Source: Escherichia coli | Lineage (GTDB): Bacteria > Pseudomonadota > Gammaproteobacteria > Enterobacterales > Enterobacteriaceae | Length of the DNA: 53,280 nucleotides | Reading direction: 5' to 3' (one strand) | NCBI RefSeq assembly: GCF_003334355.1 | Contig: NZ_QOWP01000028.1 | Shown: positions 19,978 to 20,646 of the stretch, in pieces | How positions within the stretch are numbered: position 1 is the first letter of the stretch | Layout: every line of letters begins with the position of its first letter | Notes under the pieces: generated by a model | The model's database searches: none | What the model was told of the DNA's origin: nothing | What the model saw: the letters and a program-made list of their open reading frames with translations, nothing else | Position numbers and translations under genes: made by a program

Positions 19978-20337
19978 AAAGTCCTGTCCAGAAAGAAGTC
20001 GGCCTCGCAAAAATGAATAAACCCAGTTTCTCTTGCGCAACAGGTGGAGAAGTCGAATACGCAGTATGTAAAAAATGAGGCAACAGATTCACTGGGGAGG
20101 TCGCGAGGAGGCGCAATTCTACAAAATTGCGCATTTCACTACCAGTCTGGAGTCAGCCCGGATATGAACTGCAACTATTGCAAATAAAGAAATTAAGCTG
20201 GAAGGCATCGCGCAATGAGGAAGATTGCCGGGTGCTGACAGTAAAAAGCAATCGTAGAATCAGCGGCAAGCCGGAAAGGTTCCGGTGAGGCGCAATGTTG
20301 CGGGGGCTTTATCCCTGGTGGCATTGGTTGCTGGAGA

Positions 20338-20405
20338 GAGAAAACCCCCGCACGTTGCAGGTATGCACCTGACAACACCACGGGGGCTAATCTTGACTCT
20401 AGACC
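20338..20405 (-). ncRNA. rdlD: Putative RdlD antisense RNA (type I antitoxin of ldrD)
   Basis: On the minus strand, upstream of and antisense to the ldrD leader: candidate -35 TTGTAA and -10 TATTCT, then a hairpin (cccccg…cggggg) followed by UUUUCUCUC ending near 20338. Boundaries are approximate. Confidence 0.45.
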
Positions 20406-20452
20406 ACTCAAGAATAGCCGCGAAACGTTGTCATTACAACACAGGCGGCTAT

Positions 20453-20560
20453 ATGACGTTCGCAGAGCTGGGCATGGCCTTCTGGCATGATTTAGCGGCT
20501 CCGGTCATTGCTGGCATTCTTGCCAGTATGATCGTGAACTGGCTGAACAAGCGGAAGTAA
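20453..20560 (+). CDS. ldrD: Type I toxin LdrD (35-aa membrane peptide)
   Basis: Translation MTFAELGMAFWHDLAAPVIAGILASMIVNWLNKRK matches the Ldr peptide family; located between yhjV and bcsG. Confidence 0.9.
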   Translation: MTFAELGMAFWHDLAAPVIAGILASMIVNWLNKRK

Positions 20561-20610
20561 CGTGTCATGCGGGCGTCAGGCTGCCGTAATGGCAATTTGC
20601 GCCCGGACCA

Positions 20611-20641
20611 GGCCGCAGGGGGGAAACTCTGCGGCCTTTTT
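20611..20641 (+). terminator. Rho-independent terminator of ldrD
   Basis: ggccgcag…ctgcggcc hairpin followed by TTTTT, ending 5 bp before the bcsG stop codon on the other strand. Confidence 0.55.
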
Positions 20642-20646
20642 CGTTC

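Follow-up and report, generated by a model that had tools for sequence, protein, structure and literature searches.

The locus at 20100-20646 of the window (the whole stretch of 53,280 nucleotides of E. coli DNA that we analyzed) is almost certainly the chromosomal LDR-D element of E. coli, i.e., the type I toxin-antitoxin module ldrD/rdlD. This identification is already known, since the locus is annotated in K-12 and has been studied since 2002, and making it here changes nothing, the copy being identical to the characterized K-12 one. We show that positions 17040-23040 of the window are the reverse complement of MG1655 3697500-3703500 with only 2 mismatches in 6001 positions, one at 18646 in dppF (synonymous) and one at 20954 in bcsG, and with none within 20100-20646. 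The annotated order in MG1655 is bcsG, ldrD (b4453), rdlD (b4454) and yhjV, and this annotation agrees with the matches in Rfam, Pfam and PDB, confirming the first-pass annotation of this DNA, which had placed an ldrD/rdlD type I locus between yhjV and the bcsEFG operon. Compared with the LDR-D of E. coli K-12 (Kawano et al. 2002), the whole element is identical and has the same two neighbors, yhjV and bcsG, with differences located outside the element, where bcsQ is intact in our sequence and bcsG carries a private R458L change. A 61-mer spanning the bcsG SNP was matched exactly in one genome only, that of strain PSS-12 (NZ_AP027697.1), whose annotation has ldrD at the corresponding place as WP_000141634.1; the window most likely derives from this strain.

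The LDR-D repeat and its toxin

The LDR-D repeat unit is located at 20252-20644 on the + strand and is homologous, from promoter to terminator, to the LDR-A, -B and -C repeats of K-12. A blastn search against MG1655 1267000-1271500 gave three matches over 20252/3-20644 (393 bp) with 79-80% identity, and beyond these limits the similarity drops to 21-47%. The interval of 20100-20646 originally assigned to the locus therefore does contain the repeat, but its first part, 20100-20251, is spacer DNA specific to this locus, lying between ldrD and yhjV, which are transcribed divergently. Relatives were sought by scanning 298 Gb of genome contigs with the 15-mer CAAGATTAGCCCCCG, a pattern so short that chance matches dominate the 120 loci listed; 10 of these 120 carry an LDR, and come from Escherichia, Citrobacter, Pseudocitrobacter, Kluyvera and one mislabeled "Bacillus sp." contig. 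The comparative set used below consists of 13 LDR copies from four genera, all of them close relatives.

The toxin gene ldrD is found at 20453-20560 on the + strand, with an ATG start and a TAA stop, as established by translation, Pfam, PDB and RefSeq, and it encodes the 35-aa peptide MTFAELGMAFWHDLAAPVIAGILASMIVNWLNKRK. In a profile search, Pfam PF13940 (Ldr_toxin) covers residues 1-35 of 35 (E 6.9e-27, 93.7 bits); the encoded peptide is identical over 1-35/1-35 to PDB 5LBJ ("Small toxic polypeptide LdrD"), and RefSeq WP_000141634.1 ("toxic polypeptide LdrD") is the same protein, as is the LdrD of K-12. An NCBIfam search returned no model matching LdrD. The full-length Pfam match and the identity to 5LBJ bear out the earlier reading of this frame as a canonical Ldr toxin, and the frame carries no inactivating changes, being identical to the K-12 LdrD that is toxic in experiments.

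The Ldr/Fst toxins are marked by a hydrophobic helix, then a conserved Trp, then a cluster of charged residues at the C-terminus (Fozo et al. 2010, PMC2887945), and LdrD displays all of these, with a C-terminus that reads AAPVIAGILASMIVNW-LNKRK, i.e., W30 and then the charged cluster KRK. The Trp pattern is conserved in 11 of the 13 aligned Ldr copies; the two others have Gly (Pseudocitrobacter L034) or Arg (Kluyvera) at this position, and both keep the adjacent Trp. In the literature, LdrD is described as a 35-residue alpha-helical peptide of the inner membrane, whose overproduction kills E. coli, the cells ceasing to grow and their nucleoids condensing within minutes, and whose toxicity is relieved by co-expression of RdlD (reviews of Kawano et al. 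2002: PMC4147584, PMC8309996).

A megablast search with 20040-20700 found a match in all 5426 of the 5426 complete E. coli genomes, with at least 80% query cover in 5393 of them, and the matching genomes annotate the CDS as LdrD or as an Ldr-family toxin. Tandem D-type copies are present at the locus in about 61% of E. coli genomes, with a single copy in the present window. This variation in copy number between strains, from single to tandem, is one of two observations consistent with LDR-D being a selfish or neutral repeat that brings no present benefit and persists because loss of the unstable antitoxin is harmful. The other is that ldrD and rdlD deletion mutants are viable and near wild type, behaving like it in proton-gradient assays and differing weakly from it in depolarization assays (PMC11997105). 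We nevertheless regard a selfish or neutral repeat as unlikely, since essentially no E. coli genome lacks the locus, since both LDR sites are syntenic across genera, and since vertical inheritance with stable duplicates has been deduced for these elements (Fozo et al. 2010, PMC2887945).

The antisense RNA RdlD and control of ldrD

rdlD encodes a 66-nt antisense RNA antitoxin at 20339-20404 on the - strand, complementary to nt 71-136 of the ldrD mRNA. Rfam RF01813 (rdlD) matches this interval over all 66 model positions (87 bits, E 2.4e-18, with a gathering threshold of 50 bits), and RdlD is the sole antitoxin RNA family that Rfam matched in the whole window. Because of the cis arrangement, RdlD is perfectly complementary to the ldrD mRNA. 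Its target is located 49-114 nt upstream of the ldrD ATG, and the 48-nt gap leaves the Shine-Dalgarno (SD) sequence and the start codon uncovered. The predicted fold of RdlD (-29.5 kcal/mol, z = -4.0) is a long hairpin with imperfect pairing and UUUUCU after it, and a terminator scan of the - strand identified a hairpin with a T-run at 20361-20347. The opposite-strand hairpin and U-run noted from the sequence at the outset, and described as an Rdl RNA of about 65 nt located 50-115 bp upstream of the toxin, correspond closely to this RF01813 match.

Published expression data from K-12, where RdlD is identical in sequence to the one studied here, demonstrate that the RNA is made. The MG1655 annotation of the ncRNA b4454 corresponds to window 20341-20404, and a curated Term-seq list gives a "primary" rdlD 3′ end at MG1655 3700201/3700202 (+) in three growth conditions (Adams et al. 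2021, PMC7815308, supplementary file 1), which translates to window 20339/20338 (-), i.e., the end of the Rfam match. Both ldrD and RdlD have been detected by Northern blot (Huang et al. 2020, PMC7373196), and p19 capture recovered an abundant, RNase III-dependent cluster of ~21-nt dsRNA within the rdlD/ldrD overlap (PMC7373196), showing that the two RNAs form a duplex in vivo and that RNase III acts on it. The Term-seq end, the Northern blot and the dsRNA cluster all support the small minus-strand transcript that the first-pass annotation had predicted within 20330-20410.

A sigma-70 consensus promoter scan of both strands found 0 sites, and the promoters of ldrD and rdlD were therefore both assigned by conservation and position only. 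The putative rdlD promoter, read by eye at 20411-20439 on the - strand, has a -35 hexamer TTGTAA (20439-20434), a 17-nt spacer and a -10 hexamer TATTCT (20416-20411), the latter ending 7 nt before the RdlD 5′ end (20404). These hexamers are kept as TTGnnA and TAT(T/C)CT in 13 of 13 copies. The promoter-like element claimed earlier has a weak match to the consensus (8 of 12 positions), under the cut-off of the scan.

For ldrD, the predicted -10 element is TAGAAT at 20255-20260 on the + strand, a motif that recurs as GTAG(A/T)AT in each of the 13 LDR copies of the four genera (Escherichia, Citrobacter, Pseudocitrobacter and Kluyvera); we found no convincing -35 for this promoter. The -10 lies 8 nt upstream of the inferred transcription start, which the conserved -10 and the published 136-bp RdlD/ldrD overlap (PMC7967276) together place near 20269 (20404-135). 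At the other end of the transcript, an intrinsic terminator, kept in 13 of 13 copies, is located at 20610-20641 on the + strand, as given by the terminator scan and by folding, with a stem at 20610-20637 (11 pairs, 8 of them G-C) and a T-run, TTTTT, at 20637-20641; the fold of the ldrD 3′ UTR has z = -4.2. With its 5′ end taken from the -10 and the RdlD overlap and its 3′ end from this terminator, the ldrD mRNA would span 20269-20643 on the + strand, i.e., about 375 nt; it was reportedly given as about 370 nt by Kawano in 2002.

Conservation of this transcript is not concentrated in the part that is translated. Across copies, the coding sequence is 77% identical, with 88% identity in the 5′ UTR before the Rdl overlap and 78-82% in the 3′ UTR, i.e., both UTRs are conserved at or above the level of the CDS. 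Within the Rdl overlap, identity is 99% in the 3′ arm of the outer stem and tail (20339-20352), 89% in the 5′ arm of the outer stem (20377-20388), 77% in the inner stem-loop (20353-20376) and 78% in the 5′ tail (20389-20404).

We analyzed the region upstream of ldrD for features through which RdlD may act. A candidate leader frame is present at 20393-20452 on the + strand; it starts at UUG 20393, has an SD-like GGGGG 7 nt upstream of this UUG (20382-20386), and runs in frame into ldrD, with both the UUG and the GGGGG located inside the RdlD target. The frame from this UUG reaches the ldr AUG without a stop codon in every one of the 13 copies, even though indels shift its phase. It is fused to ldr in the D copies, in E. 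coli E69, in one of the kdsA-side copies of Escherichia sp. E1V33, in Pseudocitrobacter L034 and in Citrobacter. For LDR-A, -B and -C and the second E1V33 kdsA-side copy, its UGA stop overlaps the AUG; a 1-nt indel separates the in-frame fusion of LDR-D from the overlapping stop of LDR-A, -B and -C. The Kluyvera and Pseudocitrobacter L033 copies have its end 17 nt inside ldr. A second feature is a 3′ UTR segment at 20570-20603 (+), which is predicted to pair with both the start region and the 5′ end of the mRNA: in the RNAalifold consensus of the 13 mRNAs and in the MFE fold, 20427-20462 pairs with 20570-20596, and 20289-20295 with 20597-20603. The consensus includes a handful of compensatory pairs, e.g., 20436-20587, which occurs as AU, UA and GC.

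These features, and UTRs conserved at or above the level of the CDS, fit a hok-like mechanism of leader coupling and 3′ UTR sequestration, in which the conserved 3′ UTR would pair with the ribosome-binding region of ldrD and keep it locked, and ribosomes translating the upstream frame from UUG 20393 would open the ldrD start region, which would otherwise stay closed. RdlD would then act by blocking the UUG 20393 start and by triggering cleavage by RNase III. Given weak signals from closely related sequences, we hold this mechanism tentatively, as having slightly less than an even chance of being correct. The leader frame varies in phase and in peptide sequence among the 13 copies, and its openness over 20 codons in close relatives is weak evidence, since about 0.38 is expected for random sequence. 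In addition, UUG with GGGGG is a poor initiation signal, and the long-range fold is a prediction that draws on 13 similar sequences and on few compensatory pairs.

The same absence of an upstream ORF kept in phase across the 13 copies favors another possibility, namely that RdlD acts mainly by destabilizing the ldrD mRNA, with RNase III cutting the duplex and the truncated mRNA decaying or being untranslatable, and with no leader ORF involved. This would account for the rdlD/ldrD overlap being the most abundant type I toxin-antitoxin dsRNA cluster in p19 capture, and for the observations in an rnc mutant, in which full-length ldrD and RdlD rise slightly in abundance and lifetime, and which alone accumulates a short ldrD fragment (PMC7373196). 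However, the effect of rnc on full-length ldrD is only slight (PMC7373196), and reviews describe the action of RdlD as inhibition of translation (PMC4147584, PMC8309996). Furthermore, 49 nt or more separate the RNase III cut site from the start codon downstream of it, and cleavage alone would therefore leave the coding part intact. We consider action mainly through mRNA decay to be on the unlikely side, and retain leader coupling with 3′ UTR sequestration as our working model.

A leader ORF of ldrD, "ldrX", has been proposed by analogy with mok of hok/sok, and is unconfirmed according to reviews (PMC4147584, PMC8309996); the frame from UUG 20393 may correspond to this published idea (PMC4147584). 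Two other candidates were rejected. As a leader start, the in-frame ATG 20363 was discarded because only the D copies have it; LDR-A, -B and -C lack it, as do the other genera. The 25-codon ORF at 20295-20372, considered as "ldrX", is intact in 10 of the 13 copies, those of K-12 LDR-C, Citrobacter and Kluyvera being disrupted, and it ends 83 nt before ldrD; its persistence is better explained by conservation at the RNA level.

The junction between ldrD and bcsG

The bcsG gene (ORF 20647-22326) is encoded on the - strand, and its stop codon, TAA at 20647-20649, is placed identically by the ORF list and by the MG1655 annotation. The ldrD terminator and this stop are separated by 5 nt (20642-20646), as the first-pass annotation had observed with a hairpin placed at 20611-20641. 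An LDR terminator followed by the bcsG stop within 2-5 nt is found in Escherichia, Citrobacter and Pseudocitrobacter, for example in Escherichia sp. E1V33, E. coli O111:H8 and the soil isolate SC434 (in each of these at the second copy of a tandem), and in Citrobacter sedlakii. In Pseudocitrobacter faecalis, the LDR-bcsG junction is present and yhjV is absent, with the LDR located between dppF and bcsG. As it is found in all three genera, the junction predates E. coli, and comparison of these sequences indicates that it was already in place when Escherichia, Citrobacter and Pseudocitrobacter diverged. Such an old junction agrees with the vertical inheritance deduced for an "LdrD group" (Fozo et al. 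2010, PMC2887945).

The proximity of the two genes had led to the proposal of transcriptional interference or shared termination between ldrD and bcsG. Following the hairpin, the + strand reads TTTTTCGTTCTT and the - strand GGTCCGGGCGCA; on the bcsG strand, the sequence past the hairpin is GGUCCGGGCGCA, with no U-tract. The U-run on both strands that marks a bidirectional terminator is thus absent, and the terminator scan reports the + direction only. Judged by its sequence, the hairpin at 20610-20637 terminates transcription in the ldrD direction only, and shared termination is unsupported because the bcsG strand has no U-tract. The terminator scan found no terminator of bcsG's own before the next one on this strand, which is that of RdlD. 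Between the two, C mildly exceeds G on the - strand (C/G 1.2-1.6), a bias that would allow for Rho action without being diagnostic of it.

The curated Term-seq list (PMC7815308) contains no 3′ end between a bcsG-internal site (window 20872) and the RdlD end, none for ldrD, and no Rho region at the ldrD/bcsG junction. Similarly, the dsRNA cluster spans just 34 bp, all of them within rdlD, and the locus was unflagged for overlapping transcripts in two earlier data sets (PMC7373196). None of the published 3′-end and dsRNA data accessible to us show an overlap of ldrD and bcsG transcripts. Both the Term-seq and the dsRNA data are from K-12. The cellulose operon of K-12 is crippled.

We weighed these results against the possibility that the convergent ldrD and bcsEFG transcripts interact, either with the shared hairpin ending or stabilizing both, or with bcsEFG read-through running antisense to ldrD and ending at the RdlD terminator, which would link expression of cellulose modification to control of the toxin. 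The gap of 2-5 nt between T-run and bcsG stop, kept in three genera, the position of the RdlD terminator as the first available to bcsG on the same strand, and the moderate C-richness downstream of bcsG would all be in keeping with such an interaction. However, a tight junction can simply be an inherited insertion point, and with GGUCCGGGCGCA in place of a U-tract, no 3′ end or Rho region from 20872 to the RdlD end, and dsRNA restricted to rdlD, we find an interaction very unlikely; the interference or shared termination first proposed finds no support here, while still being conceivable. More improbable again, in our estimate, is that the conserved junction is itself functional, whether with bcsEFG read-through serving as a second, conditional antitoxin in cellulose-proficient (bcsQ-intact) strains like the present one, or with the hairpin forming a protective 3′ end for bcsEFG.

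Comparison with related toxin-antitoxin systems

The LDR-A, -B and -C repeats of K-12 (ldrABC/rdlABC), which adjoin kdsA, have the same architecture as LDR-D, and their 5′ UTR and Rdl stems are nearly invariant relative to it. Their toxins differ from LdrD, with a DNA identity of 67% in the CDS, and their Rdl RNAs differ from RdlD in the apical loop and the 5′ tail. The alignment of all Rdl sequences shows the same pattern, i.e., fixed stems, with a loop and tail that set the D group apart from the A/B/C group. Loops and tails are the usual first-contact elements of antisense RNAs, and their divergence here fits a possible insulation between cognate toxin-antitoxin pairs.

As in ldrD/rdlD, the 5′ UTR in the hok/sok/mok system of plasmid R1 is long, and the antisense RNA is directed against it and not against the toxin's own start. 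The hok toxin, in contrast, is unrelated to LdrD, and leader coupling and 3′ processing are demonstrated for hok alone of the two. In a 3-kb search, the Rfam sok model matched 20302-20455 (+) with 24 bits (E 0.012), under its threshold of 59, and we took this match as chance.

The Fst toxin of the RNAI-RNAII system (par, pAD1) belongs to the same Ldr/Fst superfamily as LdrD, sharing a transmembrane helix, the conserved Trp and a basic C-terminus (PMC2887945), and, like LdrD, it causes nucleoid condensation (PMC2887945, PMC4147584). The two types of locus differ in the placement of the antisense RNA, which in Fst-type loci lies opposite the 3′ end of the toxin gene, and in ldrD/rdlD opposite the 5′ UTR (PMC2887945).

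Tandem LDR copies and the neighborhood of the locus

Many genomes of E. coli contain two LDR-D-like (D-type) long direct repeat (LDR) copies in tandem at the yhjV-bcsG locus, with a period of 483 bp and with an Ldr ORF present in each copy. Examples include the comparison sequences L125 (2660-3600) and L096 (3691-4566), and the soil strain E. coli SC434 (L126). The spacer between the two copies is present in 3305 of 5426 E. coli genomes (61%), with matches counted anywhere in the genome, and it is often found at two or more places in a single genome. Judged by these genome-wide spacer matches, the single D-type copy seen in K-12 and in the window is the apparent minority state.

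Our analysis of Pseudocitrobacter faecalis (L034 1-2731) showed that this region does not contain yhjV, and that the LDR copy is located directly between dppF and bcsG. Since the LDR adjoins bcsG even where yhjV is absent, the linkage of the LDR with bcsG is more conserved than its linkage with yhjV. In SC434 (L126 1-1150), the dppF gene beside yhjV is replaced by a gene encoding a HipA-family type II toxin.

LDR copies on plasmids and in other assemblies

LDR matches are also present on E. coli plasmids, where we identified 27 with approximately 81% identity that are annotated as Ldr-family toxins, for example NZ_CP195449.1 122139-122501. Previous work on the Ldr family inferred little horizontal transfer (Fozo et al. 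2010, PMC2887945). A D-type copy from Escherichia albertii (L005 14724-14789) has GCGTTGG in place of GCGGGGG in the 3′ arm of its RdlD terminator stem, meaning that two G-C pairs are lost, and the terminator of this antitoxin may be weakened; the RdlD match still scores 79 bits with Rfam, and the contig stops within the element. One further contig, annotated as "Bacillus sp. EB106-08-02-XG196" (L106, NZ_JABWSY010000055.1; 503 bp, coverage 0.66), consists of D-type LDR sequence from end to end, with 96-98% identity to the window and with an rdlD match, and is almost certainly Escherichia contamination within a Bacillus assembly.

The bcs genes compared with MG1655

Published Term-seq data place a reproducible 3′ end within bcsG, at MG1655 position 3699668 (window 20872, minus strand), approximately 225 nt ahead of the stop codon, with a Rho score of 1.17 and flagged as not Rho-dependent; this is the sole curated 3′ end on this strand from the bcsE-internal ends (3696560/3696639) to the RdlD end (PMC7815308). 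Codon 458 of bcsG (window 20954, minus strand) is CTT (Leu) in the window vs CGT (Arg) in MG1655, and Arg is also found in MC4100, two further E. coli strains, Escherichia sp. E1V33, Citrobacter sedlakii and Pseudocitrobacter. An exact 61-mer containing the Leu codon occurs in only one of 5426 complete E. coli genomes, PSS-12 (human feces, Ecuador), marking the change as a private substitution at a conserved residue of this phosphoethanolamine transferase.

The window diverges more from MG1655 around bcsQ, with 11 mismatches over the 1.5 kb of 24040-25540 compared with 2 over the 6 kb of 17040-23040. In bcsQ (24555-25307), annotated as a pseudogene in MG1655, codon 6 (24570-24572) is TTG (Leu) in the window and TAG in MG1655; because bcsQ is intact, the window strain is probably cellulose-proficient.

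Other Rfam matches in the window

Four other elements scored above the Rfam threshold: the cspA thermoregulator (392-819, minus strand; 501 bits), a tRNA (12016-12089, plus strand), naRNA4 (CssrE; 12186-12265, minus strand) and ES036 (CssrF; 14501-14543, minus strand), each of which is already known in K-12.
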